NCBI GenBank assembly: GCA_964463155.1
Contig: CAYXAY010000001.1
Location: forward strand, 1,407-65,406
Direction of reading: 5' to 3'
DNA length: 64,000 bases
Source: an uncultured archaeon
Lineage (GTDB): Archaea > Iainarchaeota > Iainarchaeia > Iainarchaeales > CSSED10-239
The position numbers and the translations under genes are program-made. Below are positions 1 to 54,643 of the stretch, piece by piece. The notes below the pieces were generated by a model that was not told the origin of the DNA, searched no databases, and was given only the letters and a program-made list of their open reading frames with translations. Position 1 is the first letter of the stretch. Every line of letters starts with the position of its first letter.

Positions 1-1463
1 GATTTAGTTCCGAGGTTTTGTTCTTCCATAAGTTTGATAAGCCCTGCTTCTGTATAATGGATAGGTGGCGTTGTTTCTTTGTCTTCCTTTAATATTTCAA
101 GAACAGGGACAATATCTCCTTTTTTTAAATCAGGCAAAATTGTTTCATTTAATTTAGAGAAATAATATATTTTCTTCCACCCCGGTTCAATAATTGTTTG
201 CCCATTTACTACAAAAGGCGCGTTTTTGATATCTATGATTGCAGAAATGTTTTCGGTTTTTGCATCCTTATAAAGTGTTGCCAAAAATCTTCTAGTTACC
301 AAATCAAATATTTTTTTTTCAGCTCCAACAAGCTTGTTTGAATAACTAACCGGATAGATTGGCGGGTGATCCGTTGTTTCTTTTTCTCCTCTGGAAGGAT
401 GTATGGGATTTGATAATATCTCTTTTGCAATTTCTTTGTAGTCCTTGTCTTGAGAAACAATTTCTACAATTTCTTTAATATTAATTGTTGCAGGATAAAC
501 CGTATTGTCTGTTCTTGGGTAACTAATAAGTCCTTGTTGATACAAATTTTCAGCAATATTCATGGCTTGGTTTGTGCTAATCCCAAAAATACTTGATGCT
601 GCTCTCAAAAAGCTGGTGGTATTAAACGGTTCTGGTCTGTTAAGTGTTTTTTCTTTCTTTGAAACGACCTTAACAATCCCTTCTTTTTCATTCTTGATAT
701 TTTCAAAAATCGTTTTTGCTTTTTCAGTATCAAAAAACTTTCCTTCTTTGTGGTTTCCTGAAAACTTAATCTTGTCTTTTTCAAAATTAGCAATTATTTC
801 AATATATTTCTCAGGAACAAATTTTAATCTTTCAAGTTCCCTTTCAACTACAAAATTCAATAAAGGAGTTTGTACTCTTCCCGCAGAAATGAAAAGTTTT
901 CCTTTTCTGTTTGATACAACAGAAAGATATCTAGTAAGTATTGCCCCCCACAAAAGATCAACTTCTTGACGCGCAAAAACAGAATCTGCGTAATTGAAAT
1001 CAACTTTTCTTAAATTATTAAAAGAATCAATAACTTCCGTTTCTGTTAATGCACTAAAATATGCTCTTTGAAGATTAGCGTTCTTGTTTTGTTCAGCAAC
1101 ATAATTATAAGCCTCCACTCCAATTGCCTCTCCTTCTCTATCAGCGTCTGTTGCAATAATTATATTGTCTAATTTTTCTCTTTTCTTTCTAAGGCAAGAA
1201 ATTATTGCCTTTTCAACCTGAAGATAAGTAAGTTCCTTATCTGCCAAAAGATCAAGAACATAAATGTTCCAATAGTTATTGTCTCCAACAAAATCAACAG
1301 TGTTTATGTGTCCTCTAAGAGGAATTACAAGAGCATTCTGTCCCTCCCAATCAAAAGAAAAGCAATTAACGCCGTTTTCGACTATGGTGTCAAACTTGTT
1401 TCTAGAGAGGATGCTTGCAAGTCTTTTTCCTGCAATGGCTTTCTCTGAAATTATTAGCTGCAT
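1..1463 (-). CDS. topA: Type IA DNA topoisomerase (Toprim + active-site Tyr domains), 5' part; runs off window start
   Basis: Manual translation of minus strand from ATG at 1463: MQLIISEKAIAGKRLASIL (Toprim), ATDADREGE, active-site SYPRTDN; no stop before window edge. Confidence 0.8.
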   Translation of the reverse strand, partial: MQLIISEKAIAGKRLASILSRNKFDTIVENGVNCFSFDWEGQNALVIPLRGHINTVDFVGDNNYWNIYVLDLLADKELTYLQVEKAIISCLRKKREKLDNIIIATDADREGEAIGVEAYNYVAEQNKNANLQRAYFSALTETEVIDSFNNLRKVDFNYADSVFARQEVDLLWGAILTRYLSVVSNRKGKLFISAGRVQTPLLNFVVERELERLKFVPEKYIEIIANFEKDKIKFSGNHKEGKFFDTEKAKTIFENIKNEKEGIVKVVSKKEKTLNRPEPFNTTSFLRAASSIFGISTNQAMNIAENLYQQGLISYPRTDNTVYPATINIKEIVEIVSQDKDYKEIAKEILSNPIHPSRGEKETTDHPPIYPVSYSNKLVGAEKKIFDLVTRRFLATLYKDAKTENISAIIDIKNAPFVVNGQTIIEPGWKKIYYFSKLNETILPDLKKGDIVPVLEILKEDKETTPPIHYTEAGLIKLMEEQNLGTK

Positions 1464-5497: not shown

Positions 5498-7249
5498 TTG
5501 GTAACAACATCATACATAGACGAATTAAAAGAACAAATGGCAAAGGACTTAGAAAAGGCCAACAAAAACATTGAAGATAAAAAAGCAAAAGAGGAACAAA
5601 AAACAATCGCGCCTCCTGAAACAAAATCCATTATTTCATCAAATGAAACAAAACTGGATAATATTAAGGACACTTCTAAATCATCAGCCACAGATGATCT
5701 TGACCAGTTTGTGCCAAGGCAGACAAGTGAGTCAATAAAAACCTTTATGACTACAATAAAAAATGACAAGGAAGCAGACATTTTAATTTCTAAATGGGAA
5801 TCAACAGGAAAGCTTGTAACAAAATATGCGGACACAGAAATCTACAGGGTTCTAGACGAACCTCTTCTTTATTATAAAACATCAATACCAAAACCATCCC
5901 CAAACCAAAAACTAATAATAAACACATTAAAGGAAGCAACGACCAGACTAATAACAACAGACCCTTATAAGATCAGAGACCCAATCCAAAGACAAAACAT
6001 TTATTACCAAAAAATTTTAGAGATTCTAGAAAACGCTCCAGAAATCAATGTTCCAAAGCATTTGTTTGACTTCTACGCTAAAGCGGTTGTTACTGAAATG
6101 GTTGGCTTTGGTATGATTGATACTTTGATTCACGACACAAAGCTTGAAGAAATAATGATTATTGGTCCAAAAAAGCCAGTATATATTTATCACAGAGACT
6201 ATGGAATGATGTATACCAACATTATTTTCTACACAGACGAAGAAATACAAGACATCATTGACAAGATTGCAAGAGTTCTTGGAAGAAGAGTAGACATCTC
6301 TAATCCATTACTAGATGCTAGACTTCCAGACGGCTCTCGTGTAAATGCAACAATACCACCGGCATCAATTGATGGTTCAACAATAACTATTAGAAAATTT
6401 AGAGAGGACCCTTACACAATCGTGGACTTGATAAACTTTTCAACAATCAATATGGAAGTGGCAGCATTCCTTTGGTGTGCGGTTGATGGCATGGGCGCAA
6501 AACCAGCAAACCTATTAATCTCTGGTGGAACTGGTTCTGGTAAAACAACATTACTAAATGTTCTTGCAAACTTTATTCCAAATTCAAGTAGAGTTCTAAC
6601 AATTGAAGACACTGCAGAATTAAAACTTCCAATAAAACACATAATAAGATTTGAAGGAAAGCCTCCGGGTTTAGAAGGAACAGGAGAATTAACTCTTGAC
6701 ATCCTTGTAAAAAACACTTTAAGAATGAGACCCGACAGAATAATAGTGGGCGAAATCAGACACGCAGAAGCAAGCACGTTGTTTACTGCCATGAATACAG
6801 GTCACGACGGCTGTATGGGAACAATACACGCTAACACAGCAAGAGAAACCCTTGTAAGAATAACTTCTCCACCAATGGATGTTCCAATGCTAATGCTTGC
6901 CGGTCTAGACTTTATTGTTGTTGAAAAAAGAATGAACACCACCAGAGGTTTGGTCAGAAGAATAATTGAAGTTGCAGAGATTACAGGGGTCTATGAAAAC
7001 AATCCAAAATGTAATACGATCTTTAGATGGAACCCTCAAACAGACAATCTTGAAAGAACACCTGAGCCAATAAGATACTTTGATATTATAAAAACCTATA
7101 CAAAAAACACAGATGCAGATATTAAGGCAATTGTGGAGAAAAAGATAAGTATTTTAAATGGTTTAGTTAAAAAGAATATTAGGTCCATAGATGAGGTTTC
7201 AAAGGTCGTCCAGGATACTTACACTCAAGAAATGAAGCCCAATATGTGA
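5498..7249 (+). CDS. Type IV filament assembly ATPase (FlaI/TadA/VirB11 family)
   Basis: Walker A GGTGSGKTT, RIIVGEIRHAEA Walker B/Asp box, His box GHDGCMGTIHANTA; TTG start at 5498, alternative ATG downstream. Confidence 0.85.
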   Translation: MVTTSYIDELKEQMAKDLEKANKNIEDKKAKEEQKTIAPPETKSIISSNETKLDNIKDTSKSSATDDLDQFVPRQTSESIKTFMTTIKNDKEADILISKWESTGKLVTKYADTEIYRVLDEPLLYYKTSIPKPSPNQKLIINTLKEATTRLITTDPYKIRDPIQRQNIYYQKILEILENAPEINVPKHLFDFYAKAVVTEMVGFGMIDTLIHDTKLEEIMIIGPKKPVYIYHRDYGMMYTNIIFYTDEEIQDIIDKIARVLGRRVDISNPLLDARLPDGSRVNATIPPASIDGSTITIRKFREDPYTIVDLINFSTINMEVAAFLWCAVDGMGAKPANLLISGGTGSGKTTLLNVLANFIPNSSRVLTIEDTAELKLPIKHIIRFEGKPPGLEGTGELTLDILVKNTLRMRPDRIIVGEIRHAEASTLFTAMNTGHDGCMGTIHANTARETLVRITSPPMDVPMLMLAGLDFIVVEKRMNTTRGLVRRIIEVAEITGVYENNPKCNTIFRWNPQTDNLERTPEPIRYFDIIKTYTKNTDADIKAIVEKKISILNGLVKKNIRSIDEVSKVVQDTYTQEMKPNM

Positions 7250-8403
7250 TTTTTAAAATGCAAGAAGATGATAAAAATTTAAAAAATTTTAAAAAAGAAC
7301 TGGAGAAAGACGAGTCAAAGCCAACAATTGATTTGGATGCTGTTCAAAACATAGTTTCTAAATTAAAAGATAAAGACAGAGTAAAAGGGCTTTCAGGAAC
7401 TGTTTCTGAAGGACACTTAAAGGAATTAAGAGACATCATTTCTGAAGGAAAGCTTGCAAAATTAAATGTTGATACAGAAACAAAACTTCTTGCTAACTCT
7501 GAGTCACAAATCAATAAAGGGGCAGTAAAGATTTATGGCGCCTTTCAAGGGCCCATTAATGCTATTGTCAAATCAATAATCAAGCAAAGCATAGGAAGAA
7601 AAATCGCATTTTATTTATATTCTGCAGGCACAAAAAAAACTCTTGTTCAACATCTTGTTCTTTCAGTCATCTATTCTTTAATAGTGACTGTAGGACTTGG
7701 TTTTTTTATGCTAATAATACTTGCAATAGTTAATCCGTTGTTTTTGATATTCTGGCCTGCAATAATCATATTTGTGTTTATATTTGCATTAATATCATTT
7801 GCTTATCTTGTGCCTATGCAAAAGGCAAGGCTTAGAGGAATAATGATTGACACAGAGCTTCCATATGTTCTAAGACACATATCAACAGAGTTACAGGCGG
7901 GCATTGGTCTTTACAAGACATTACAGTCTGTTGCAAAAAACGATTATGGTGTTTTGTCAGAGGAAATGGCAAGAACAATAATTGAGATAGAAAATGGAAC
8001 AGACACAAAAACAGCACTAAGGCACATGGCTCTAAGAAGTCAATCAAAAAGCTTTAACATAGCAATCTTTCATATTGTAAGAACATTAAACACAGGTGGC
8101 AATCTTTCACAAAGTATTGATAGTGTTGCTAACACAGTTTCCTTTGAATTACTAGAGTCTTCAAAACAGTTTGGAGAAAAAATGAATTTCTTTGGAATAA
8201 TATTTATTTTTGTTGCAATTGTTCTTCCAGTGTTTTTAGCAATATTAAGTGCTATTGCAAACGCACCGATTGGACAAGATGGTTCTTTGTTTCTTCCAGG
8301 AGTACTGACTCCAACATTACTAACTATAGTTTATTTGGTAGTAATGCCTGCAATCTTTGTGTTTATATCCTATTATATTAAGATGATAGAACCAAAAATG
8401 TAA
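7246..8403 (+). CDS. TadC/FlaJ-like pilus platform membrane protein (T2SSF domain)
   Basis: T2SSF-type cytoplasmic domain followed by TM helices; overlaps ATPase stop by 4 nt. Confidence 0.7.
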   Translation: MIFKMQEDDKNLKNFKKELEKDESKPTIDLDAVQNIVSKLKDKDRVKGLSGTVSEGHLKELRDIISEGKLAKLNVDTETKLLANSESQINKGAVKIYGAFQGPINAIVKSIIKQSIGRKIAFYLYSAGTKKTLVQHLVLSVIYSLIVTVGLGFFMLIILAIVNPLFLIFWPAIIIFVFIFALISFAYLVPMQKARLRGIMIDTELPYVLRHISTELQAGIGLYKTLQSVAKNDYGVLSEEMARTIIEIENGTDTKTALRHMALRSQSKSFNIAIFHIVRTLNTGGNLSQSIDSVANTVSFELLESSKQFGEKMNFFGIIFIFVAIVLPVFLAILSAIANAPIGQDGSLFLPGVLTPTLLTIVYLVVMPAIFVFISYYIKMIEPKM

Positions 8404-8416
8404 ACGAGTAGAAAAA

Positions 8417-9352
8417 ATGGCAAATACATTAAAAGAATCGTTAGATAGATACCAAATATATCTTTATTCAATGAAAATAAAGATGAAAGCACTTTATTGG
8501 TTTGCATTAATAATAGTTGTTGCTGTGATTTTTGGAGGGCTTTTTGTATTTTTAGATGTGATGTTTAAAGGTTCTGGCGCATTAACAAAGGTTGGTTTTC
8601 TGGTTTTTGCAATAACTCTTAATTTAGGTCTTGGTCTCCCGTATTATAAATATTTTAAGAATCTTGAACTTATTGAAAAATATTGGCCCGATTCCTTAAG
8701 ACTTATTGCAGACACTATGAAATCAGGTTCATCACTTGACTATGCTATAAGAGAAGCAAGTTCTGCTGATTTTGGACCGTTGTCTTTGGAGTTTAATGAA
8801 ATTATAAGAAGACTAGAGATGGGAGACACCATGTCTCAAGCACTTAACCACATGTCTCTAAGAATAGAATCTAAGATTGTAAGAAGAACAATAACATTGA
8901 TTCAAGAATGTTTAAAGACAGGGGCTCAGCTTGCTGATGTCCTAGAGGAAATTGCTCAAGACACCAAGCAGGTGTTTAGAATAAAAAAAGAAAGGGAAAC
9001 AAAAACACTTCTACAAGTTATTTTTATTTTTGCAGCAGGAGCAGTTATTGCACCGTTTATCTTTGGTCTTACAAATGTGATTACGGTCTTTTTAACTAAC
9101 ATTTCAGCTAACTCCGGGGTTGCTTCTGCTGACGCTCTTGCTAAATCAATAGTAGCTCAAAAGACAATGAGTTTGCTTCTAGATGCTTACCTATTACTGG
9201 AAGTTGCAGCTGCTTCAGTAATCATTAGTCTTATGAGATCAGGAACGTTTACAAATGCAATTGCGTTTTTCCCGGCCATGATAACAATAGCATATATAGT
9301 TTACATTGTTTCTCAAGCAACAATAAATGGAATATTAATTGGAGTTGTATAG
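8417..9352 (+). CDS. TadB/TadC-like second platform membrane protein (T2SSF domain)
   Basis: T2SSF-like domain (LRLIADTMKSGSSLDYAI... LADVLEEIAQD) plus TM helices; paired with upstream TadC-like gene. Confidence 0.65.
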   Translation: MANTLKESLDRYQIYLYSMKIKMKALYWFALIIVVAVIFGGLFVFLDVMFKGSGALTKVGFLVFAITLNLGLGLPYYKYFKNLELIEKYWPDSLRLIADTMKSGSSLDYAIREASSADFGPLSLEFNEIIRRLEMGDTMSQALNHMSLRIESKIVRRTITLIQECLKTGAQLADVLEEIAQDTKQVFRIKKERETKTLLQVIFIFAAGAVIAPFIFGLTNVITVFLTNISANSGVASADALAKSIVAQKTMSLLLDAYLLLEVAAASVIISLMRSGTFTNAIAFFPAMITIAYIVYIVSQATINGILIGVV

Positions 9353-9355
9353 ATT

Positions 9356-9538
9356 ATGAATAGATTAAAAAAATTATTAAAGGAAAAAAGAGGGCAAGTA
9401 AGCCTTGAAGTGTTGTTGATTGTTGGAATAATTGTTCTTGCAGCAATACTTGTTGGTTATTATCTAAAGCAAATATCTTATAACAACAGCCAAAAAGTAA
9501 AACAATATACTGAAGCAACAACTTCTGGCAGATCATAA
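9356..9538 (+). CDS. Flp-like small type IV prepilin (60 aa)
   Basis: Class III signal peptide KRG|QVSLEVLLIVGIIVLAAILV with Glu at +5; Flp-pilin length. Confidence 0.75.
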   Translation: MNRLKKLLKEKRGQVSLEVLLIVGIIVLAAILVGYYLKQISYNNSQKVKQYTEATTSGRS

Positions 9539-9553
9539 ATCGGTGATTTTCGG

Positions 9554-10024
9554 ATGTTAAAATTAAACAGAAAAGGGCAGGGCGCTTTAGAGTATCTTTT
9601 GGTAATTGCAGGAGTAATACTTATTGCAATAATTGTAATTTACATAATAGTTACAAGTGGTTCGTCAAGCAGAGATAAGGTAGACGATTCTTATCAAAAA
9701 GTAAACAACCTGACTGACAGCGCAATATTTCCACCAAGAATCAAATCAGTAACTTGTGCTTATAAAGACATTAATACAATAAGATTTAATTTAAGGATCT
9801 TTGAATCCCCAACACCAGGAATTGACACATATTGTCTTTATCTTTCAGGAAGAGACATTAACAGATGTAGCGTTTATTCTGGGGCAACATTAGTTTATGA
9901 TTACAATATACTAACAAACATTGTTGCAATAGACAATAACACATTTAATTTAACATTAATTTCTTTGCTTGATGAGAACAACTTCTCAAACCCAAGCGTT
10001 TCAGAAAGATGCACCATAAGATAA
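9554..10024 (+). CDS. Type IV prepilin (class III signal peptide) with DNTIFPP-like module and Cys-containing beta domain
   Basis: RKG|QGALEYLLVIAGVILIAIIVIY; DSAIFPP motif; YCLYLSG...C; 156 aa. Confidence 0.75.
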   Translation: MLKLNRKGQGALEYLLVIAGVILIAIIVIYIIVTSGSSSRDKVDDSYQKVNNLTDSAIFPPRIKSVTCAYKDINTIRFNLRIFESPTPGIDTYCLYLSGRDINRCSVYSGATLVYDYNILTNIVAIDNNTFNLTLISLLDENNFSNPSVSERCTIR

Positions 10025-10027
10025 AAT

Positions 10028-11542
10028 ATGTTTGAAGATATTTTTAATATGTTAAAAAAGCAAAAAGCACAAACAGCAGTTGAGGTGCTAATAATCATCA
10101 GCGGAATATTGATTGTTGCGGTTGTTGTTGTTATGATTTTTATATCAACAGGCTCAGCAAAAGCAGACGACATAACAAAAACAGATACCGCCCATCAAAA
10201 ACTGCTTGACAACACAATCTTTCCCCCAACACTTGATTCTATTAAATTAACAGATAGTAACGACACAAATGTAACTATTCAAGTAAGTATTACAGAATCC
10301 CCATCTTCAAATATTAAAGATTATTGTTTGGTTGTTAATGACAACATAACAAATTATTGTAATAGTCCAGGCACTAGTGGAAATATGGTTTTTAATATTC
10401 CAAAAGAAACCACAAATTATTATTCTGTATCTCTTGTCTCAAGAAGCAACCAAGATAAGATTTCCTCATCAAGCTTTGTTTTAACTGGAAGTATTGCTAC
10501 TGTTGGCACAGGCGGCACTGACGACACAGGCGAAACTGGACCGCTACTATTAAACTTTACTTGTCCGACAGGCTATGCAAAAGTTCCGGGACTTGCAGAA
10601 TATAATACAATAGGCGATAAAAACGGTTTTTGCGTTATGAAATGGGAAGCAAAAATTAATTTTGATAATGATCCATTAGGATTGGGAGACATTAATACTA
10701 GTTGTGAACATTTTGTGGCAAGACCTAACCACACTTTGCGTTATGGTATTTGGGATATAATGGCCACTGGTTGTCGCATTACTTCAATAACTAATAGATT
10801 AGTTTCCACTGCGGAAGGATACCCTATAGGAAATGTAAATCAAAACGAAGCGAGAAATTATTGTCAAGGATTGGCCACTTCAACAGGCAAAGATTATCAT
10901 TTAATAACAAACAATGAATGGATGACAATCGCAAGAAATATAGAGGATCAAAATGTTAATTGGATTAGCGGGGCGGTGGGCGTGGGACCATTAAAAAAAG
11001 GAAACACCTATGGTCGCATCCCCGCAATTCCAGGAGAATATGGCGTTTCTTGTGTTATAAGCGCCGTAGCAGAGAGATGGTTAATCGATTATGTGGGCGC
11101 ACCATGTTCTGCTTCACCAAATCATAGAAATCAACTATCATTAGCAAGATTGGTTTTATCTACAGGAGACGAAATTTGGGATTTTTCGGGGAATATGGAA
11201 GAGTGGGTTGATAAAACTGTTTATTCTTATGTTGAACCAAAACCAATTGATGAACAAAATTATTCTTCACCAGCAAGATTTGAATTTACATTAATTGATC
11301 GCACTAAATTACACCCTTCTTTTCCTGAAAACCAATACCGCCCAAAAAATTTAAATTGGAACTCAATACAAGGCGTTGGTCAGATATTTAGTCACTGGAG
11401 AAGTGGAAACGCAACTCATGGCATTTTAAGAGGAGGGAGGGTTTTTTTAAATAACGGACCAACAGGAATTTATACAATTGATTTTTACACTCCAACAACT
11501 AGAACCATATATGCCGGATTTAGATGCGTGTATGTGCCATAA
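10028..11542 (+). CDS. Prepilin fused to FGE-sulfatase / C-type-lectin-fold domain (pilus tip adhesin candidate)
   Basis: KA|QTAVEVLIIISGILIV class III SP, DNTIFPP, YCLVVN module; C-terminal FGE-family motifs ARNYCQGL...HLITNNEWMTIARN, WDFSGNMEEWVDK, LRGGRVF, GFRCVYVP; no CxxxxC catalytic pair. Confidence 0.8.
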   Translation: MFEDIFNMLKKQKAQTAVEVLIIISGILIVAVVVVMIFISTGSAKADDITKTDTAHQKLLDNTIFPPTLDSIKLTDSNDTNVTIQVSITESPSSNIKDYCLVVNDNITNYCNSPGTSGNMVFNIPKETTNYYSVSLVSRSNQDKISSSSFVLTGSIATVGTGGTDDTGETGPLLLNFTCPTGYAKVPGLAEYNTIGDKNGFCVMKWEAKINFDNDPLGLGDINTSCEHFVARPNHTLRYGIWDIMATGCRITSITNRLVSTAEGYPIGNVNQNEARNYCQGLATSTGKDYHLITNNEWMTIARNIEDQNVNWISGAVGVGPLKKGNTYGRIPAIPGEYGVSCVISAVAERWLIDYVGAPCSASPNHRNQLSLARLVLSTGDEIWDFSGNMEEWVDKTVYSYVEPKPIDEQNYSSPARFEFTLIDRTKLHPSFPENQYRPKNLNWNSIQGVGQIFSHWRSGNATHGILRGGRVFLNNGPTGIYTIDFYTPTTRTIYAGFRCVYVP

Positions 11543-11555
11543 TTTATGAGAAAAT

Positions 11556-13148
11556 ATGTTTGAAGAGATTTTTAATAAGTTAAAAAAGCCAAAAGGGCAA
11601 ACGTCTTTAGAAATACTTATTGTTATGGGGGGATTAGTTATTGTTGCAGTAGTTGTTGTAACTGTGATTCTTGCAGCAAGCAAGAACAAGGTCGCGGAAA
11701 TTACAAATGCAGACAGGCAAAATGCAATGGTTATTGACACTACATTGTTTCCGCCAAACATTAATTCAATAAGATGTAATTTAAAAGAAGACAATACAGG
11801 CATAGACATTTCATTATCAGTTATTCCTTCAGCAACAAAAGATATTTCAGATTATTGTTTAGTAATAAACGGAAGACCAACAGAAATCTGCGCGTCTTCT
11901 TCATTAACAGAATTATTATTTACTACTGCCGAAGTTGGAAACGGAAACTTCAAAGTAGCTTTAGTTTCAAGAAACAGCAGAAATGCAATATCAAGTAACA
12001 GCGTTAGTTTTAATTGTAGAGTAACATTGCCTATTGGAGGAATAATCATTCCTCCAGATAATAATCAGACAACACCAGAGAAATTACCATTAAATTTTAC
12101 ATGTCCAGCGGGCTATGCGAAAGTTCCGGGACTTGCGGAATATAACACAATAGGCGATAAAAATGGTTTTTGTGTTATGAAATGGGAAGCAAAAATGGAT
12201 TTTGATAATGATAATATTGGCGACACAAATGTAAATTGTATTCGCTTTTTTAGATCAAATTGCACTTATCACAATATTTGGGATGTACGCACCTGTTCAG
12301 TTCCAAACAACACAAAAATAACTAGTACCTCTCAAGGATTGCCTATAGCAAATTTAACATTAGCTGATGCTAGAAATTTTTGTTCAAATCAAGGTAGCGG
12401 ATATCATTTAATTACTAATGACGAATGGATGACGATAGTAAAAAATATAGAGGATCAAAATGTAAATTGGAGCGGGGGGGTAGTAAACGTCGGTAGTTTA
12501 AAAGTAGGAAATGCCGGTGGGTCAAGTGGTCGAATAACTTACAATCTTGCGAACTCAAATGTGTCTCCATATGGTCCACTGTCACTAGGGCAAGCGTGTT
12601 CTACCTATAGCTTATTATATGATTATAACGGACACCCCGCACCCAATTCAGTTTATTGTACTACCGGTTGTACTGAAAACAATAATTTAACACAACCCTC
12701 TAAATTAAGATTATCGACAGAAGACGAAATTTGGGATTTTTCTGGAAATCTTATGGAATATGTAGATAAAACACTATTTAGAGGGCATTTACCAACGCCC
12801 GAAATTAATGGGGAACCACAAACAAATATTTGGACAGAATTTATAAATATAAATTCCACAAACAACACTTACCTTCAAGATAAAGAATACAAACCAACAA
12901 ATTCAAATTGGCATTCTGCGGTAGGAATTGGCAAATTTATGATTAATCAATATACCCAACCAGAAACGATGATTTTTATAAGAGGAGGTGGCGCATTTTA
13001 TTATGTTAACAATTTTGACGCGTCGGCAGCCGGCATCTATTCATTATATCTATTAAGAACCACAACAACCGCGGTTCCAAGTGGCCCACATATTGACCAA
13101 GGTCCAGGCATTGGCTTTAGATGTGTTGGTCCAGGAACTCTAAATTGA
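11556..13148 (+). CDS. Prepilin fused to FGE-sulfatase / C-type-lectin-fold domain, tandem paralog
   Basis: KG|QTSLEILIVMGGLVIV SP, DTTLFPP, YCLVING; shares near-identical FTCPxGYAKVPGLAEYNTIGDKNGFCVMKWEAK core with upstream gene; WDFSGNLMEYVDK, IRGGGAF, GFRCVGPG. Confidence 0.8.
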   Translation: MFEEIFNKLKKPKGQTSLEILIVMGGLVIVAVVVVTVILAASKNKVAEITNADRQNAMVIDTTLFPPNINSIRCNLKEDNTGIDISLSVIPSATKDISDYCLVINGRPTEICASSSLTELLFTTAEVGNGNFKVALVSRNSRNAISSNSVSFNCRVTLPIGGIIIPPDNNQTTPEKLPLNFTCPAGYAKVPGLAEYNTIGDKNGFCVMKWEAKMDFDNDNIGDTNVNCIRFFRSNCTYHNIWDVRTCSVPNNTKITSTSQGLPIANLTLADARNFCSNQGSGYHLITNDEWMTIVKNIEDQNVNWSGGVVNVGSLKVGNAGGSSGRITYNLANSNVSPYGPLSLGQACSTYSLLYDYNGHPAPNSVYCTTGCTENNNLTQPSKLRLSTEDEIWDFSGNLMEYVDKTLFRGHLPTPEINGEPQTNIWTEFININSTNNTYLQDKEYKPTNSNWHSAVGIGKFMINQYTQPETMIFIRGGGAFYYVNNFDASAAGIYSLYLLRTTTTAVPSGPHIDQGPGIGFRCVGPGTLN

Positions 13149-13288
13149 TCTAATTCTAATGTTTTTTAGTTTGCCAAACTAAACAGAAAGATATATAAAT
13201 ATAATCTATAACAATAATAGTAATTATTTTATTATATAAATAAAATATAAATCACTCAAAAACTGAGTAATTAAACGGAGGAATAAAA

Positions 13289-13699
13289 ATGAAGTTTAAT
13301 AAAGGTCAAGGTGCACTTGAATACCTATTATTAATCGGCGGAGCTGTATTAATCGCAGTTATCGTAATCGCATTACTTGTAGGTATGGGTTCATCCAGCA
13401 GACAAGGAACACAAGAAAGGCAAGAAAGCATAGACAATACAATTGCAGGAACAGCTATCGCTCCGATATTGAATGCGGTGACATGTGCCAATAATACTTT
13501 AAATTTAAGATACATTTATAATGGTGGAACATTGGAATATAGCTTAAACAACGGAGCTTGGACCGCAGTAGGGGAAACAGATGGAAATACAAATATTTCT
13601 GTAACAACTTGTCCGGTAGTACCATATTCAGTACAACTTAGATCTACAAATGCAAGTGGTCAGATAGCTCTATCAAGTACATTCACTGTAAGAACATAA
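13289..13699 (+). CDS. Type IV prepilin (class III signal peptide)
   Basis: NKG|QGALEYLLLIGGAVLIAVIVIALLV; GGAGG SD 8 nt upstream; 136 aa. Confidence 0.75.
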   Translation: MKFNKGQGALEYLLLIGGAVLIAVIVIALLVGMGSSSRQGTQERQESIDNTIAGTAIAPILNAVTCANNTLNLRYIYNGGTLEYSLNNGAWTAVGETDGNTNISVTTCPVVPYSVQLRSTNASGQIALSSTFTVRT

Positions 13700-13764
13700 A
13701 TACAGTAATTTAACCAGGGGTTTCCTGGTTTTATTTTTGTTATAATAAAAAAGGGGAAAAAACA
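13700..13764 (+). terminator. Hairpin plus T-tract downstream of pilin gene
   Basis: AACCAGGggtttCCTGGTT 7-bp stem followed by TTATTTTTGTT. Confidence 0.4.
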
Positions 13765-14223
13765 ATGAATTTCAATCTTACTTTTTCAAAGAAAGGACAG
13801 GGCGCCTTGGAATATTTAATAATTATAGGTGCGGCAATATTAGTCGCAGTTATTGTTGTTTCTTTAATAATTTCAGTTAGCAGGGCTAACACAGACATAA
13901 CAACAACAAGCAACGAACAATACACAAACATGATTGATAACACAATAATCCCGCCAATGATAATAGGTGTTGACTGTAATGCGGTAGCTGATCGTGCAAG
14001 ATTTACAATAAATCCTTCAATAACCGAAGCAGTAAGTCAATATTGTTTGGTTGTAAATGGAGACGTAAATATAACTAATTGTCAAAATACAAATTCTGTA
14101 TTGACTTTCCCATACAATTCATTTGTAAATGGCACAGCATATCGTATGTCTTTAGTAGGGAAAAGGGGAAATGTTTTTTCGTCGCCAACAGCACCACCAA
14201 CATCATGTACAGCACACAACTAA
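13765..14223 (+). CDS. Type IV prepilin with DNTIIPP / YCLVVNG module
   Basis: KKG|QGALEYLIIIGAAILVAVIVV; YCLVVNGDVNITNC; 152 aa. Confidence 0.75.
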   Translation: MNFNLTFSKKGQGALEYLIIIGAAILVAVIVVSLIISVSRANTDITTTSNEQYTNMIDNTIIPPMIIGVDCNAVADRARFTINPSITEAVSQYCLVVNGDVNITNCQNTNSVLTFPYNSFVNGTAYRMSLVGKRGNVFSSPTAPPTSCTAHN

Positions 14224-14239
14224 AGATAAAAAGGTAAAT

Positions 14240-14422
14240 ATGATAAAAAGATTAATTGACGATAACAGGGGACAGGTTTCCCTTGAATATCTTGTTATGA
14301 TTGTCTTTGGGGTTATGCTTGTAATAATAACCGGCATAATGATCATCAATTTAAGCGTACTTATTTCTGTGGCCAAAGCAAAAATACTAAACTACAGGCA
14401 CAATATTCTAAATACAATATAA
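14240..14422 (+). CDS. Flp-like small type IV prepilin (~60 aa)
   Basis: True start likely ATG at 14240 (MIKRLIDDNRG|QVSLEYLVMIVFGVMLVII); the longer ORF call from 14171 overlaps upstream gene and is probably artefactual. Confidence 0.65.
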   Translation: MIKRLIDDNRGQVSLEYLVMIVFGVMLVIITGIMIINLSVLISVAKAKILNYRHNILNTI

Positions 14423-14434
14423 ATAAGAAAAAAG

Positions 14435-15538
14435 ATGTTTTATGCAAATATAGCAATATTATTTTTTGTTTTCTTGTTTCTATTGCTTGCTTCTTTTTCT
14501 GATATTAAAACTAGAACAATATCTAATAGATTAATTCTTTTCTTCTTAATATTTGGAGTTTCGTTTAATGTTCTTATGGCAATCTATCTTAATAACTATA
14601 GTCCATTATTATCATTATTATTTTCAGCAATAATAGGCTTTGTTGTCTTTTTCATATTATGGGAATTAGGCGTCATTGCTGGAGGAGACGCAAAATTATT
14701 TATGGCAATATCAATGATGCTTCCAACAATGCAAAACACTTTTCAGATCTTTAACATAGGACAAGAAAAAATATTTACTTTTCCAATATTCACAATATTA
14801 TTGTTTGTTGTTAGTGTGTTTATGGTTCTGCCATGGATATTATTATATTCTAAATACCTATTATTCAAAAGAAAAAACTATTTGCATCTTTTAAAGGAGA
14901 TTTTTTCAAAAAAGAACCTTATATCGATTATGGATTCAGTTCTTGTAGTTGTTCTTCTAGGCCTAATAATGTCTATCTTATCTCTTACAAGCATCCGATA
15001 CATTCTAATAATCTCTTTTGTATTTACCTATCTTATATTTAAAATAAAAATAAAAAAACACTTCTATACTTTTATTATATCTCTATACTTAGTTGTTTTT
15101 TTCATGTTCCTATTAACCTCAAGAAAAATAAACTATTTACTACTATCAAACACGCTAAACACAATAGTCTTTGTGTTTATATTCTCCGTATTAATCATAT
15201 ATTACAGATACATAAAAGAAAAAGTGTTTGTTGAAACAAAAACAATCTCTCAACTAACGGAAGGAGATGTCCCGATATACAATTACTATTATATTAAGAG
15301 GAAGTTAATTATTAAAGAATCAAATTTCTTTAGAAAACTAAAAGAGTTGGCACAAGGAACCTATTACAAGGGTTTAAAGGTTGATTCCAGCAAGGCCTGT
15401 GGCATTTCAGTAAAAGACATAGCTTTTTTAAAAGATATGTATAAAAATAAATTAATAAACAATAAAATATATGTAAAGAAGACTATTGCATTTACGCCAG
15501 CAGTTCTTCTTGCATTTATATTGTTGATAATATTTTAA
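14435..15538 (+). CDS. Prepilin peptidase (A24 family, EppA/PibD-like) with C-terminal extension
   Basis: Two catalytic Asp motifs at expected positions: FSD23IKTRTISNR and GGD85AKLF; 8+ TM helices; 367 aa with an extra ~130 aa C-terminal region. Confidence 0.8.
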   Translation: MFYANIAILFFVFLFLLLASFSDIKTRTISNRLILFFLIFGVSFNVLMAIYLNNYSPLLSLLFSAIIGFVVFFILWELGVIAGGDAKLFMAISMMLPTMQNTFQIFNIGQEKIFTFPIFTILLFVVSVFMVLPWILLYSKYLLFKRKNYLHLLKEIFSKKNLISIMDSVLVVVLLGLIMSILSLTSIRYILIISFVFTYLIFKIKIKKHFYTFIISLYLVVFFMFLLTSRKINYLLLSNTLNTIVFVFIFSVLIIYYRYIKEKVFVETKTISQLTEGDVPIYNYYYIKRKLIIKESNFFRKLKELAQGTYYKGLKVDSSKACGISVKDIAFLKDMYKNKLINNKIYVKKTIAFTPAVLLAFILLIIF

Positions 15539-15551
15539 ATTTTGAGAAAAT

Positions 15552-15998
15552 ATGAAAAAAGGCCAACTTTCAATTGAGATTGTAATTCTATTAGCCATAT
15601 TTCTATTGTTCTTTCAAGCAATGATACTTCCAACCATTGAGTTTTCAGAAAACATATTACAAGACACTCAAGCAATAGTGATAACCAAAAAGAACATAGA
15701 CAACCTTGCAACAAACATTGAGCAACTATCCAATCAAGAAGGCTACGGGCAAAGAAAAGTATATTTCTATTTGCCATCAAATGCAATTATGAAATGTAAT
15801 AATACTCTAAAGCAATTAGACTACAATATAACAATCTCAAAACAACAGCCAATCCCATCACAATGTGACAATATGGGGCTATGTAGCTTTAACAAGCAAT
15901 TACTCGTAAGAAACATAGACTGTAATGCGATAGGCCCCGGCCATAAAGGAATAATAACAATACTAAAAAAAATTGATGGAAACATCACAATCGGTTAA
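15552..15998 (+). CDS. Type IV prepilin-like protein
   Basis: KKG|QLSIEIVILLAIFLLFF class III signal; 148 aa. Confidence 0.65.
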   Translation: MKKGQLSIEIVILLAIFLLFFQAMILPTIEFSENILQDTQAIVITKKNIDNLATNIEQLSNQEGYGQRKVYFYLPSNAIMKCNNTLKQLDYNITISKQQPIPSQCDNMGLCSFNKQLLVRNIDCNAIGPGHKGIITILKKIDGNITIG

Positions 15999-16351
15999 TG
16001 TTTATGAAATCCAAAGCACAAATAAGTTTAGAGTTTATTGTAATACTAGGATTTATACTTGTAATCGCCTTGTTCTTTGCAAACAACATATTTGGAACAA
16101 CAGACATTAACAAGTCAATAACAAGAGTGAAGCTAAGAACCTTGGAGGTGTTTTCAACAACAGATTCAAGAGCTCAACTAAACAAAATAGATTACTATGT
16201 TTCAGACACAAACCTTCAATTAAATCTTTATATTAACAGGTTTGATGAAAACTTCTCATTATCAGAGGAATATTATTCATCAACAATAGATAATCTAGAA
16301 AAATCAACAATCTTTAAAAATGTAAGAGTATCATTTACATATATTAACTAA
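15998..16351 (+). CDS. Type IV prepilin-like protein (minor pilin candidate)
   Basis: KSKA|QISLEFIVILGFILVIALFF; 117 aa. Confidence 0.6.
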   Translation: MFMKSKAQISLEFIVILGFILVIALFFANNIFGTTDINKSITRVKLRTLEVFSTTDSRAQLNKIDYYVSDTNLQLNLYINRFDENFSLSEEYYSSTIDNLEKSTIFKNVRVSFTYIN

Positions 16352-51362: not shown

Positions 51363-52253
51363 ATGCCGACAACAAAAAAAGACACAAATGTAAAGGCAGA
51401 TACAAATTTAGAAGAAAAACTATACAAGCTATTCCTTCCAATAACTGACAGTTTTAAATCCAAAGAACTTGAAGAAAAGTTAATGCAAGCAGACATACAG
51501 GAAGAGTTGCCAAATTATCTATCCAAATATTTATTTTACGCATTATTTATACCCTTGTTGTTCATAATACTTGGAACAATAGTATTAATTGCCCTTGACC
51601 AGGTAAGCTATCTAAAGATATTGTTTGTAATTTGTTTTATTTCAATGTTTGGAATATTGATTTATGCAATAATTAATCCATATTTGATGGTCAGTACAAA
51701 AGTAGGTAACATAAAAAACAATCTGTCTCTTGCAATTCTTAGCATGTCAAGTGTTGCAGAGTCTAGTGCTCCGCCAGAAGCGATGTTTCACACAACTGCA
51801 TTAAAAACAGAAACGCCACATATTGGAAAAGAGTTTGAGAAAATAAACAGATATATGGATTTAGGATTGTCACTTCCTGAAGCAATAAACCAATTATGTA
51901 ATAAAACCCCGTCTGCAGATCTTAAAAAATTTCTAACAGAATTAAACTCAAACATAGAAGCCGGTGGATCGTTGTCTGAATTCATGAAAAAAAAAGCAGA
52001 GCATGCTCAGTTCACTTACAAATTAATGCTTGATAACCTAAACAAGAAAGCAGAAACATTTGGGGACATTTATTCAGCAATAGTTATTGCAGGTCCTTTA
52101 TTTCTTTTCTCATCAATCATGCTTTTGGGTATGATTGGAGGGGGTACTGGACTAGCGGGGCTTAGTATTGAGGCGCTATTGGTTATCGGAATCTTTGGGA
52201 TAGTTCCATTAATCAATATTTTTTTTATAATAATTTTACAATTGGCAGCATAG
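51363..52253 (+). CDS. TadC/FlaJ-like platform membrane protein (T2SSF domain), second filament module
   Basis: T2SSF-like LSLPEAINQL...IEAGGSLSEFMKKKAE...FGDIYSAIVIAGPLFLF; SD upstream. Confidence 0.6.
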   Translation: MPTTKKDTNVKADTNLEEKLYKLFLPITDSFKSKELEEKLMQADIQEELPNYLSKYLFYALFIPLLFIILGTIVLIALDQVSYLKILFVICFISMFGILIYAIINPYLMVSTKVGNIKNNLSLAILSMSSVAESSAPPEAMFHTTALKTETPHIGKEFEKINRYMDLGLSLPEAINQLCNKTPSADLKKFLTELNSNIEAGGSLSEFMKKKAEHAQFTYKLMLDNLNKKAETFGDIYSAIVIAGPLFLFSSIMLLGMIGGGTGLAGLSIEALLVIGIFGIVPLINIFFIIILQLAA

Positions 52254-52263
52254 GAGAAAAACA

Positions 52264-53079
52264 ATGAAATTTAATCCAAGAATTGAATATTTGCTAGATG
52301 CGGCAGCAAAAGGAGCAATAGGTTCACTAATACTTGGAATAATTCTATTAAATACAAAATTTTTCATATTCTGTATCTTTCCAGTTGTAATAGCAATTGG
52401 AGTAGCATCAATACTTTACACAAAGAAACTAAGGTCTCTTGAAAGCAATCTTTTTGTTTTCTTAGATGATTTAAAGGACTTATTACAAGGCGGTATGAAC
52501 ATTGTCACAGCAATGGAAATAATTTCAGAACACGATTATGGCGCATTAAATCCTTATCTAAAAAGAATTGCAGCACAAGTCAAGATTGGTATTCCGTTTG
52601 ATGTTTCATTAGTGGAGGTGTTTTCAGAAGTTGACAGTCCATTGTTCAATAATATTGCAAATGTAATCTCAGAAACAATGAAATATGGTGGAAACCTCAT
52701 AAAAATTTTTGGAGCAGTTTCAAATTATGTAAAACTGATTGATGAGATGGGTGAGGAAAGAAGAGCAAAAACATTTTCAACGGTATTTTCTTCATATTTC
52801 ATGTTTTTTATTTTTATTGCAATTATCCTTACTATCCAAATAGTATTTCTGCCGATGCTTCAATCAAATCAAATAAGTACATCACCAGGCACATCCATTT
52901 CAGATATTAACTTTAATGCATATTTCCTTTATCTCTTGATTATTCAAGCAGGCTTTGCTGGTCCAATAATAGGTAAGATTTCTGAAGGAAACTCAATAGC
53001 AGGAATAAAACATTCAATTATATTACTGGTAATCTCAATACCAATCTATGTGTTGATTTCAATGTTATTTGTAAAATAA
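52264..53079 (+). CDS. TadB/TadC-like platform membrane protein (T2SSF domain)
   Basis: LLQGGMNIVTAMEIIS...ETMKYGGNLIKIF T2SSF-like plus TM helices. Confidence 0.55.
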   Translation: MKFNPRIEYLLDAAAKGAIGSLILGIILLNTKFFIFCIFPVVIAIGVASILYTKKLRSLESNLFVFLDDLKDLLQGGMNIVTAMEIISEHDYGALNPYLKRIAAQVKIGIPFDVSLVEVFSEVDSPLFNNIANVISETMKYGGNLIKIFGAVSNYVKLIDEMGEERRAKTFSTVFSSYFMFFIFIAIILTIQIVFLPMLQSNQISTSPGTSISDINFNAYFLYLLIIQAGFAGPIIGKISEGNSIAGIKHSIILLVISIPIYVLISMLFVK

Positions 53080-53136
53080 GGTTAAGTTTATATAAATATA
53101 TGAAATATATATTAATAGGAGAAATAATGGGATAAT

Positions 53137-53613
53137 ATGTTATTAAATATTAGATTAAATAAAAAAGGCGTTTCACCATTAATTGCAACCATTCTACTTG
53201 TCGCAGTATCCTTGTCTCTTGCAGGAATACTATATTCTTGGGCATCACAAAACGCAAAAGATACAGTTAACAGCGTTACAGAAACTTCCAAAAAATGGAG
53301 AGATTGTAGTGCGATAAACATGTACATAGAGTATGGCTGTACTTATGATGCGACCACAGGAATAAGCTTTATACTTAACGATTCATCAACAGTAAATATT
53401 GATGATAACCTAACAGTAAGCGTGATTGATATAAACAATGCAATTAAAAGTTCAACGTTTGCTCCAAACTTTTCAGGAAGAGCAATGGTTATTACCCGTG
53501 CAATACTTTCTGACCCAAATGCACTTGATGGTTTGAATAAACCATTACAAAGAGTAAGAGTTTATGTTGACGGTTGTCCAGATAGGGCGGCATCAACAAC
53601 TACTTGCAACTAA
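53137..53613 (+). CDS. Archaeal type IV pilin (Pilin_N/DUF361-type class III signal peptide)
   Basis: KKG|VSPLIATILLVAVSLSLAGIL; conserved Cys pair; C-terminal TTCN. Confidence 0.75.
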   Translation: MLLNIRLNKKGVSPLIATILLVAVSLSLAGILYSWASQNAKDTVNSVTETSKKWRDCSAINMYIEYGCTYDATTGISFILNDSSTVNIDDNLTVSVIDINNAIKSSTFAPNFSGRAMVITRAILSDPNALDGLNKPLQRVRVYVDGCPDRAASTTTCN

Positions 53614-53626
53614 ATAAAAATAATCT

Positions 53627-54106: not shown

Positions 54107-54169
54107 AAGCTTTTTAAATGTTTTTGTTATATGGTAATATAAGTATATAACATTTTAGGAGGAAAATTT

Positions 54170-54622: not shown

Positions 54623-54643
54623 AATAGTAAATTTGAATAAAAT

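Follow-up and report, generated by a model that had tools for sequence, protein, structure and literature searches.

A probable pair of modular type IV pilins with non-enzymatic lectin-fold heads in a predicted Epd-like pilus operon of a Diapherotrites-like archaeon

The window (the whole 64-kb stretch of DNA analysed here) carries a tightly packed gene cluster at 5498-16351 that encodes a T2SSE ATPase, two T2SSF proteins, nine class-III-type proteins and a Peptidase_A24/Arc_PepC protein (Table 1). Two of the nine, P1 and P2, are the sole large subunits of the operon. A prepilin peptidase had been placed in their locus, and the Peptidase_A24 and Arc_PepC matches identify it; its NCBIfam matches to FlaK and EppA are weak and far under the cut-offs. 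In NCBIfam, the ATPase scores 277 bits against FlaI and 234 bits against TadA, both under the equivalog cut-offs, and its position is kept in the syntenic locus L080. The gene order of the operon is conserved in L080, L081 and L082, and the two pilin-like genes that close the cluster lie at orthologous positions in L080. A two-gene platform is the stated hallmark of the archaeal TFF 'system 1', which has been reported in DPANN (bioRxiv 10.64898/2026.04.22.720090), and the cluster agrees with system 1 as described there. Judged from its gene content, the locus is a complete operon for an Epd-like ('system 1') pilus in an archaeon akin to Diapherotrites. The mini-pilin upstream of P1 is a candidate for the major subunit, and the identical gene in L001 has a Class_IIIsignal match. 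The start of the second mini-pilin was set at the ATG at 14240 (the listed ORF runs from 14171), which matches the 60-aa orthologue at 12939-13121 of L080. Elsewhere, the window encodes PolD and Orc1/Cdc6, which mark the organism as archaeal and DPANN-like; the lineage was read from PolD homologues alone, the nearest named PolD being from 'Candidatus Diapherotrites'. Rfam and tRNA scans of the 64 kb found nothing.

Table 1. Predicted genes of the pilus operon and the parts of P1 and P2 (window coordinates; a slash marks the predicted leader cleavage site)
Feature	Position	Strand	Basis
Assembly ATPase, FlaI/TadA-like, T2SSE	5498..7249	+	Pfam T2SSE E 1.6e-46
Platform protein 1, T2SSF / TadB-C-like	7246..8403	+	Pfam T2SSF E 2.7e-15
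Platform protein 2, T2SSF	8417..9352	+	Pfam T2SSF E 3.6e-17
60-aa mini-pilin, leader KRG/QVSLE and helix only	9356..9538	+	ORF, pilin alignment
156-aa pilin, alpha-1 helix and beta-sandwich, module as in P1/P2	9554..10024	+	Class_IIIsignal 31.5 bits, above cut-off
P1, carrier type A modular pilin, 504 aa	10028..11542	+	ORF, homology
P1 parts: leader aa 1-14; alpha-1 helix 15-62; beta-sandwich 63-155; linker 156-175; head 176-504			
P1 segment RGG...GFRCV, aa 468-501	11429..11530	+	Profile alignment to TaqVP and SUMF2
P2, carrier type B modular pilin, 530 aa	11556..13148	+	ORF, homology
P2 parts: leader aa 1-14; alpha-1 helix 15-59; beta-sandwich about 63-155; linker about 156-179; FGE-type CLec head 180-530			
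P2 segment RGG...GFRCV, aa 476-524, 15 aa longer than that of P1	12981..13127	+	Alignment
136-aa pilin	13289..13699	+	Pfam Class_IIIsignal 32.9 bits
152-aa pilin, beta module as above (IDNTIIPP, YCLVVNG)	13765..14223	+	Class_IIIsignal 31.1 bits, alignment
Second 60-aa mini-pilin, NRG/QVSLE	14240..14422	+	ORF, alignment
Class III prepilin peptidase with archaeal C-terminal domain	14435..15538	+	Peptidase_A24 60.1 bits, Arc_PepC 38.4 bits
Two more pilin-like genes: 148 aa, KKG/QLSIE (Class_IIIsignal below cut-off); 117 aa, SKA/QISLE	15552..16351	+	ORFs, alignment

The preliminary description of this DNA had presented P1 and P2 as adjacent paralogs with a three-part architecture. Their coordinates and lengths are exactly as claimed, they align end to end with 41% identity (E 1e-107), and each of the three parts (leader with pilin N-terminus, beta module and C-terminal head) is upheld. 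The linker of P1 is rich in Gly, Thr and Asp and leads into an FGE-type CLec head. In the structure models the pLDDT of the linker is below 50, and the placement of one domain relative to the other is unreliable.

The class III leaders read KKQKA/QTAVEVLIIISGILIVAVVVVMIF in P1 and KKPKG/QTSLEILIVMGGLVIVAVVVVTVI in P2. The sites proposed earlier, KA/QTAVE and KG/QTSLE, are thus present with Gln at +1 and Glu at +5. The layout is a short charged stretch and a [KR]-[GA]/Q motif, directly followed by a ~20-residue hydrophobic stretch with the Glu at +5. Aligning the nine class-III-type proteins of the locus leaves just two invariant columns, Q15 and E19. Profile support for the leader is thin: Pfam Class_IIIsignal (PF04021) gives P1 17.2 bits against a cut-off of 23.7 and does not match P2. 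Five of the 11 members of the close family match it, all sub-threshold, and the neighbouring small pilins score above the cut-off at 31-33 bits. The bacterial N_methyl profile of Pfam has no match in the leader of either protein. The structure models predict an N-terminal helix of 43-46 residues and then a beta-sandwich, which is the long alpha-1 helix and beta-rich globular domain by which archaeal type IV pilins are recognised. The conserved beta module described earlier exists, but it is not a separate element; it is the globular pilin domain that the small pilins also have, and its motifs read DNTIFPP / YCLVVN in P1 and DTTLFPP / YCLVIN in P2. In the alignment the 156-aa pilin has IFPP, YCL and closing-strand motifs in common with this module, and on this comparison the pilin module of P1 and P2 is homologous to the adjoining small pilins.

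This homology bears directly on the reading that P1 and P2 are not pilins, their N-terminus being a membrane anchor that is not cleaved, or a standard Sec signal, of conventional tethered surface proteins that lie in the operon by chance. The Class_IIIsignal scores would fit such a reading, and many other carriers of the P1/P2-type head have Sec signals, lipoprotein signals or membrane anchors. However, a charged leader and then [A/G]/Q-x-x-x-E right before the hydrophobic stretch is how class III signals are laid out, and these are cleaved ahead of the hydrophobic core and not after it. In addition, Q+1 and E+5 do not vary among the pilins of the locus, the entire alpha-1 and beta-sandwich module is shared with bona fide adjoining pilins, and the place of P1 and P2 within the pilin block is conserved. 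We consider this reading quite improbable. The many N-x-S/T sequons once taken as a sign of a glycosylated surface are there (8 in P1, 10 in P2), but without enrichment, since shuffled sequences attain these counts in 35% and 43% of cases; sequon enrichment was dropped as evidence of glycosylation because the count is no higher than shuffled composition gives. Sequon density in P1 and P2 is 2-4 times that of the window's cytoplasmic proteins and similar to that of the adjoining small pilins.

The C-terminal region of P1 contains every FGE-sulfatase motif quoted for the pair, ARNYCQ...HLITNNEWMTIARN, WDFSGNMEEWVDK, RGG and GFRCV, and P2 reads differently at the first two (ARNFCS...HLITNDEWMTIVKN and WDFSGNLMEYVDK). 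The Pfam assignment is divided. FGE-sulfatase (PF03781) lies just over the cut-off in P1 (24.6 bits vs 23.3, E 2.3e-5), where no single stretch exceeds the threshold alone, and has no match in P2; in the close family 3 of 11 members match, and most are below threshold. The head gives profile matches to TaqVP (4.9e-8) and SUMF2 (2.7e-6), which together with the predicted structure bear out the FGE/CLec fold assigned to this region. Its best structural match, by a gap of 6-7 Z units, is the non-enzymatic DGR variable protein TaqVP. The kinship to the CLec family stands, but the nearest relatives are the DGR variable proteins and not SUMF1 itself. The positions of the human FGE triad Ser333/Cys336/Cys341 are occupied by R471/L474/G477 in P1 and G479/Y482/N485 in P2, as mapped onto TaqVP by profile alignment and from TaqVP to hFGE by the equivalences in PMC6328139. 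TaqVP itself has D348/N351/~V354 at these positions (PMC6328139). For direct alignment of the tail to FGE, a single-sequence search with aa 375-504 against the PDB returned noise only. Between RGG and GFRC there is no Cys in P1 and none in P2, so the reported lack of the Cys pair before GFRC holds. Because the triad positions carry non-catalytic residues, ligand binding is more plausible than catalysis for the head, as had been argued.

The segment from RGG to GFRCV is the equivalent of both the DGR variable region and the FGE active-site segment, and is the predicted ligand-binding surface. Few stretches of the family are as poorly conserved, with a mean pairwise column identity of 0.28 vs 0.83 for GFRCV. 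An enzyme would show the opposite, which argues against a catalytic FGE-family head (formylglycine-generating or otherwise oxidative, as in EgtB, OvoA and PvdO) tethered outside the cell. That reading is also at odds with the missing Ser-Cys-Cys triad, the Cys-free segment and the non-enzymatic best structural match; moreover, P1 and P2 have no DinB-type domain of the kind found in EgtB and OvoA, and no sulfatase gene lies near them. A surface enzyme thus appears extremely unlikely.

A DGR within the window was rejected. The whole-window repeat search and blastn of each 3' end against the 64 kb found no repeat of the P1 or P2 3' end, and a motif scan of the window found no RT, the sole YxDD ORF (YIDD) being SecF. 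The variable-region/template-repeat search run on the window is the method that found pairs in related loci. At least 13 of those 78 loci are clear DGR targets with a 3' variable region, a template repeat and adenine-specific mismatches (for example 20/20, 18/18 and 16/16), and 22 have an RT-like ORF. These relatives, and a head fold nearest to TaqVP, are what one would cite for P1 and P2 as cryptic targets of a retroelement outside the window. We hold this to be very unlikely, given the negative searches above and the behaviour of the closest relatives. The syntenic relatives L080-L082 have no RT-like ORF within 10 kb. The variable-region-equivalent segment has indels between members of the close family, a type of change that DGRs do not make. 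Hypervariation is likewise missing among nine P0004 variants (at least 90% identical), whose last ~45 residues before GFRC vary at only one site. Where DGR variable proteins sit in the cell is an open question (Roux et al. 2021, PMC8144416), and large surveys describe CPR and archaeal DGR targets with no recognisable anchoring domain. Pilin-type N-termini occur in 7 of the 13 clear DGR-target relatives sampled, which bears on how the DGR targets of CPR and DPANN are displayed.

Relatives carry three P1/P2-type genes, in which the stalks are near-identical and the heads divergent. For type-B paralogs of the same genome, identity falls from 96-97% in the pilin module to 66-80% across the head, and to 34-62% within its variable-region-equivalent segment. 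Evidence for gene conversion between P1 and P2 is only suggestive. A search for further pilin-FGE fusions, as had been recommended, found them in 38 of the best 120 homologues (bacterial GFTLLE prepilins), and in relatives the P1/P2-type head also occurs on archaeal class III N-termini. A link between the head and pilus machinery across all relatives was rejected, as only 5 of the 78 loci encoding the head have an ATPase homologue within 10 kb.

We think it probable that P1 and P2 belong to an Epd-like ('system 1') archaeal pilus as modular type IV pilins, each with a non-enzymatic lectin-fold head. Their precursors would enter the membrane via the hydrophobic N-terminus, and the A24 peptidase of the operon would cut the 14-residue leader after Lys-Ala or Lys-Gly, leaving an N-terminal Gln. 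The ATPase and the two platform proteins would polymerise the small pilins into a filament, which P1 and P2 would join through the alpha-1 helix and beta-sandwich module that they have in common with the small pilins, most likely at the tip or as infrequent subunits of the shaft. The flexible linker of ~20 residues would keep the ~330-residue FGE-type CLec head off the shaft. Without the FGE catalytic triad, this head would act as a ligand-binding module, whose binding surface may consist of the last ~35-50 residues (RGG...GFRCV) and neighbouring inserts, the surface that DGRs hypermutate in relatives. In a lineage with no DGR, different specificities might instead come from tandem paralogs, two or three in number, in which the stalk is kept while the head diverges. 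From this arrangement we infer display on a filament and adhesion, and P1 and P2 are most likely adhesins on the pilus, with attachment to another cell, or to a glycan or protein surface, as the likely role. Since Diapherotrites-type archaea are not established as host-attached, host attachment via P1 and P2 is speculative.

A subunit of ~50 kDa may be hard to fit in a filament, and P1 and P2 may alternatively be membrane-anchored or part of a short pseudopilus. They could then undergo pilin-type processing but stay in the envelope to capture substrates there, whether soluble or polymeric (glycans, for example), in the manner of a bindosome and of the class III sugar-binding proteins of Sulfolobales. 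The possibly awkward size of the head and the frequency of glycan binders among CLec folds would suit this reading, but no ABC transporter adjoins the two genes, which lie inside the pilin block of the operon and not in a transporter locus. In addition, P1 and P2 have the full globular module of the adjoining pilins, beyond a mere signal peptide, and their nearest structural relatives are receptor- or ligand-binding variable proteins rather than solute-binding proteins. We regard it as rather unlikely, and retain the pilus-borne adhesin as the preferred reading.

DPANN archaea and CPR bacteria are believed to rely on contact with other cells. The locus is a concrete candidate for partner recognition, combining large pilus subunits with a fold known from the programmable receptor-binding domains of phages and bacteria. 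It also connects the work on modular pilins with that on DGR variable proteins, which stand apart in the literature searched. If P1 and P2 are what we propose, the heads, two or three to an operon, would serve as natural reagents to identify the ligands of uncultured archaea and, through these, their hosts. A broader proposal, possible but tentative, is that type IV filaments are a general display platform for FGE-type lectin-fold heads, including many DGR-hypermutated variable proteins, in microbes that are ultra-small or attach to cells (CPR bacteria, DPANN archaea and Bdellovibrio-like predators). In place of a retroelement, the window lineage would then keep two or three heads on near-identical pilin stalks within the pilus operon, an array possibly reshuffled by gene conversion.

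The idea is less novel than first assumed: CPR bacteria commonly have prepilin plus FGE-domain proteins, which a catalogue of 2021 already lists, and the functionalization of archaeal filaments is a proposal of 2026. The locus resembles the system 1 / Epd pilus of Methanococcus maripaludis in its ATPase, two-gene platform, many Gln +1 pilins and dedicated peptidase (bioRxiv 10.64898/2026.04.22.720090; PMC3047682). The 2026 proposal builds class III binding proteins into archaeal filaments ('functionalized TFF'; bioRxiv 10.64898/2026.04.22.720090). It concerns ABC-type substrate-binding proteins that are usually encoded away from the filament locus, whereas P1 and P2 are tandem duplicates with CLec heads in the pilin block; the words lectin, FGE and sulfatase are absent from its text. 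The DGR variable proteins TaqVP (5VF4), TvpA (2Y3C) and Mtd (1YU0) have the FGE-type CLec fold in common with the P1 and P2 heads. TaqVP and TvpA, however, are described as single-domain monomers (PMC6328139), whereas the heads are fused to a pilin; no template repeat, RT or adenine-linked variation was found for P1, P2 and their close family (window, L080-L082, P0004 variants), and the paralog differences include indels, unlike DGR variation. From the SUMF1 family (PF03781), which includes the inactive SUMF2 and the non-FGE PvdO, EgtB and PorK/GldK, P1 and P2 differ in their R/L/G and G/Y/N triads and in being predicted extracellular and pilin-fused. Bacteroides type V pili are reported also to use a variable ligand-binding domain as an adhesive pilus component (bioRxiv 10.1101/2024.11.15.621889), but are bacterial, assembled by strand exchange and actively diversified by a DGR.

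A close parallel in architecture is offered by the bacterial modular type IV pilins, such as Streptococcus sanguinis PilB (vWA module) and PilC (ConA-like lectin module) and ETEC CofB, in which a small pilin module, a short linker and a bulky adhesion module are likewise encoded with pilus genes, and which are thought to be tip-exposed (PMC8179133). The 2021 catalogue lists eight proteins with the prepilin plus SUMF-domain architecture IPR012902-IPR005532 (PMC8179133 Dataset S1), and the bacterial relatives L032 and L033 fall within the modular pilin definition of Raynaud et al. 2021. P1 and P2 have the extra non-pilus domain of that definition but not IPR012902; with an archaeal class III leader and no N_methyl match, they are modular-pilin-like yet outside its operational bounds. 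They differ from the bacterial proteins in their archaeal class III (KGQ / PF04021-type) carrier with a beta-sandwich, in the Epd-like machinery and FGE-type CLec head, and in their arrangement as tandem paralogs, two or three of them, whose stalk is constant and whose heads diverge.

P1 and P2 are separated by 13 nt and are 41% identical over their full length (E 1e-107). Both proteins start with MFE(D/E)IFN-LKK-K-(A/G)-Q-T-x-x-E followed by ~22 hydrophobic residues, and both end in ...RGG...GFRCV. Their AlphaFold2 models, confident overall (P1, 120-sequence alignment, mean pLDDT 85.3, pTM 0.70; P2, 96-sequence alignment, mean pLDDT 78.6, pTM 0.68), show the same order of parts: a short leader, a continuous helix (residues 17-62 in P1, 17-59 in P2), a beta-sandwich (about 68-155), a Gly/Thr/Asp-rich linker of low model confidence (156-175 in P1, about 156-179 in P2) and a large C-terminal domain. 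The motifs cited in the preliminary description are present, slightly deviant in P2 (DTTLFPP, YCLVIN, WDFSGNLMEYVDK). The observation behind that description is real, and its structural interpretation, a pilin with a head of the formylglycine-generating enzyme (FGE)/C-type-lectin (CLec) type, is supported. At the linker/head junction, the two genes share 90% identity over a 128-nt stretch (window 10545-10672 and 12085-12212); where residues are identical, the codons agree at 0.76-0.86 in this stretch against 0.56 elsewhere, and P1 and P2 share residues there that their orthologues lack. These three features weakly suggest gene conversion between the tandem paralogs.

In P1 and P2 the N-terminal part is a pilin module. 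The motif [KRN]-[GA]-Q-x-x-x-E recurs in nine genes of the region 9356-16351, whose products have Gln+1 and Glu+5 as their only invariant columns. Pfam Class_IIIsignal is passed by three small pilins of the locus (31-33 bits; cut-off 23.7), reaches a sub-threshold 17.2 bits in P1 and has no match in P2. A non-pilin N-terminal anchor, on whose side these last two scores might be counted, is a minor alternative beside the motif common to the locus. The genes lie in a compact plus-strand cluster. In having a platform split in two, numerous pilins and a peptidase of its own, the cluster agrees with the archaeal Epd-type organisation, TFF system 1, described from methanogens, Thermococcales and DPANN (bioRxiv 10.64898/2026.04.22.720090).

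Coordinates of the pilus genes in the window and of the large head-pilin genes in two syntenic loci
Feature	Position	Strand	Length or match
ATPase (T2SSE)	5498-7249	+	E 1.6e-46
Two platform genes (T2SSF)	7246-8403, 8417-9352	+	
Mini-pilin	9356-9538	+	60 aa
Pilin	9554-10024	+	156 aa
P1	10028-11542	+	504 aa
P2	11556-13148	+	530 aa
Two pilins	13289-13699, 13765-14223	+	
Second mini-pilin	14240-14422	+	
Peptidase (Peptidase_A24 + Arc_PepC)	14435-15538	+	
Two further pilin-like genes	15552-16351	+	
Second filament locus, two platform genes (T2SSF)	51363-52253, 52264-53079		
Second filament locus, four paralogous archaellin-like/Pilin_N-type pilins	53137-53613, 53627-54106, 54170-54622, 54644-55096		
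Three large genes, L080	6860-11746		555/482/581 aa
Three large genes, L081	2723-7279		521/480/489 aa

The 83-aa ORF listed at window 14171-14422 begins within the last part of the pilin gene before it; the second mini-pilin likely starts at ATG 14240, giving 60 aa as in the first mini-pilin and the L080 orthologue (60 aa). A second type IV filament locus (51363-55096) has no adjoining ATPase, and the SPLIATILL N-terminus of its pilins is the type that bears CLec heads diversified by DGRs, retroelements that hypermutate the 3' variable region of a target gene, in other DPANN genomes. Archaeal markers in the window include PolD DP1 and DP2 and Orc1/Cdc6, with PolD ~62% identical to its nearest named homologues ("Candidatus Diapherotrites archaeon") and up to 83% to metagenomic relatives. 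GC content is ~32%, and no tRNA, rRNA or Rfam family was found at gathering threshold in the whole 64 kb window.

The C-terminal module is an FGE-type CLec domain with DGR variable proteins as its nearest relatives. Pfam FGE-sulfatase is matched marginally by P1 (24.6 bits; cut-off 23.3), not by P2, and by just 3 of the 11 members of the close family. A profile built from 120 homologues matches the DGR variable protein TaqVP (5VF4, E 4.9e-8), SUMF2 (1Y4J, 2.7e-6) and PorK/GldK, and the top Foldseek ranks are held by TaqVP, PvdO, Mtd, ToxD, TvpA and EgtB. Because of these matches to FGE/CLec-fold proteins, the C-terminal region cannot be regarded as unrelated to the family, the objection foreseen in the preliminary description. 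The human FGE triad Ser333, Cys336 and Cys341 superimposes on, or near, TaqVP D348, N351 and V354 (Handa et al., PMC6328139). In the profile alignment these TaqVP residues (PDB chain numbering offset by 4) stand at +1, +4 and +7 past the conserved RGG, and the equivalents, drawn through TaqVP and not from direct alignment to a true FGE sequence, are R471, L474 and G477 in P1 and G479, Y482 and N485 in P2. In both proteins the stretch from RGG to GFRC is free of cysteine, so the Cys pair reported as missing is indeed absent. Several cysteines of the heads (residues 176-504 in P1, 180-530 in P2) are conserved. By these residues, the heads are not formylglycine-generating enzymes. An enzymatic role is a minor alternative beside the substituted triad.

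There are ten full-length relatives, at 33-47% identity. Among 1.84 billion library representatives, the profile is matched end to end by only five clusters at 50% identity, and the head by 2,368 proteins (E <= 1e-10). Longer contigs show synteny of the operon from RFC, across the pilus genes, to GrpE-DnaK-DnaJ. The syntenic loci L080 and L081 have three large head-pilin genes where the window has two, in the carrier order B-A-B versus A-B; type A has KAQTA...STGSAKADDIT (P1 and orthologues) and type B KGQTSLE...ASSKSKVTQIT (P2 and orthologues). Identity between type-B paralogs of the same genome is 96-97% over the pilin module, 66-80% over the head and 34-62% over the segment that aligns with P1 461-496. 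Within the family, the lowest mean pairwise column identities are those of the insert 331-372 (0.26), the linker (0.27) and residues 461-496 (0.28) and 401-460 (0.30); GFRCV, which adjoins 461-496, reaches 0.83. Conservation marks the stalk, divergence the predicted binding face.

For the DGR relationship, the final 260 nt of every head gene were compared with the gene's own locus in 78 loci recovered with the family profile. In at least 13 of the 78, a 3' segment of ~110-135 nt recurs at a distance of about 1 kb, and the two copies differ almost exclusively where the distal copy has an adenine. Adenines account for 20/20 mismatches in L008, 18/18 in both L010 and L025, 16/16 in L045, 12/12 in L033, 7/7 in L032, 17/22 in L006 and 12/14 in L031 (Forterrea); the bias recurs in L022, L027, L040, L042 and L048. 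In addition, 22 of the 78 loci contain a reverse transcriptase (RT)-like ORF with YxDD plus [ILVM]Gxx[ST][SN]Q. Because of these adenine-biased repeats and RT-like ORFs, the head subfamily is judged to include genuine DGR variable proteins. For P1 and P2, the repeat test was negative within the window, the window, part of a 78,206-bp contig, contains no RT, and the syntenic loci L080-L082 contain no RT-like ORF within 10 kb. Family members carry insertions and deletions relative to one another in the variable-region-equivalent segment, and nine variants of the family member P0004 (>=90% identical) have a single variable site among the ~45 residues that precede GFRC versus 29 in the pilin module. 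For these reasons, the close family is not DGR-driven as far as the available sequence goes. A remote DGR acting on P1 and P2 would accord with the DGR targets elsewhere in the subfamily; it is a minor alternative beside the indels and the near-invariant segment. In the P0004 variants, it is the beta-sandwich of the pilin, with the 29 sites in ~141 residues, that varies most, and not the C-terminal surface of the head; diversifying pressure may act on the exposed body of the pilin.

Pilin-type N-termini occur in about a fifth of the representative set and in 7 of the 13 clearest DGR-target loci. The 120 best homologues include 38 with bacterial G-F-T-L-x-E prepilin N-termini, 12 of the K-[GA]-Q type and others that begin with an archaellin-like K-A-I-S-P-L-I-A-T-I-L-L (JGI annotation "flagellin-like"), the remainder having Sec signals, lipoprotein signals or membrane anchors. 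Among DGR targets, L032 and L033 pass Pfam N_methyl, and L006, L008, L010, L025 and L031 have the archaellin-like motif, on which Pfam Pilin_N, where detected, is sub-threshold (L006, L020, L079). Head-bearing taxa are mainly Patescibacteria, DPANN (Iainarchaeum, Forterrea and others) and Bdellovibrionota/Oligoflexia. The same head subfamily is found in L040, L050, L068, L069, L071 and L074, from MAGs deposited as Bdellovibrionales, Oligoflexia or Halobacteriovoraceae. By these labels they are predatory, cell-attaching bacteria, which adds to the association of the head with lineages that contact other cells. The giant proteins P0245, P0246 and P0248 (1,700-1,900 aa) contain as many as eight distinct regions that match the family profile and may each carry several heads; in P0245 (1,805 aa), four such regions accompany a class-III-like N-terminus, KNKNA|QISLE.

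The best-supported reading makes P1 and P2 modular pilins that display CLec heads lacking catalytic activity on an Epd-like pilus, each paralog contributing a specificity of its own; their processing, assembly, location and ligand we infer. The main rival is a bindosome-like display on the envelope without a long filament. Nothing relevant came from full-text searches that paired pilin and FGE-sulfatase, or DGR and either type IV pilin or DPANN, the DGR literature searched has no mention of pilin or class III N-termini on DGR targets, and the text of bioRxiv 10.64898/2026.04.22.720090 lacks the terms lectin, FGE and sulfatase. Modular pilins were defined for bacteria by Raynaud et al. 2021 (PMC8179133), in which the vWA module of PilB mediates adhesion and Dataset S1 holds, uncommented, 8 proteins of the IPR012902-IPR005532 (prepilin + SUMF domain) architecture. 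P1 and P2 are an archaeal, CLec-headed, tandemly duplicated variant of this known idea, of moderate novelty, and the locus adds a link between modular pilins and DGR variable proteins.
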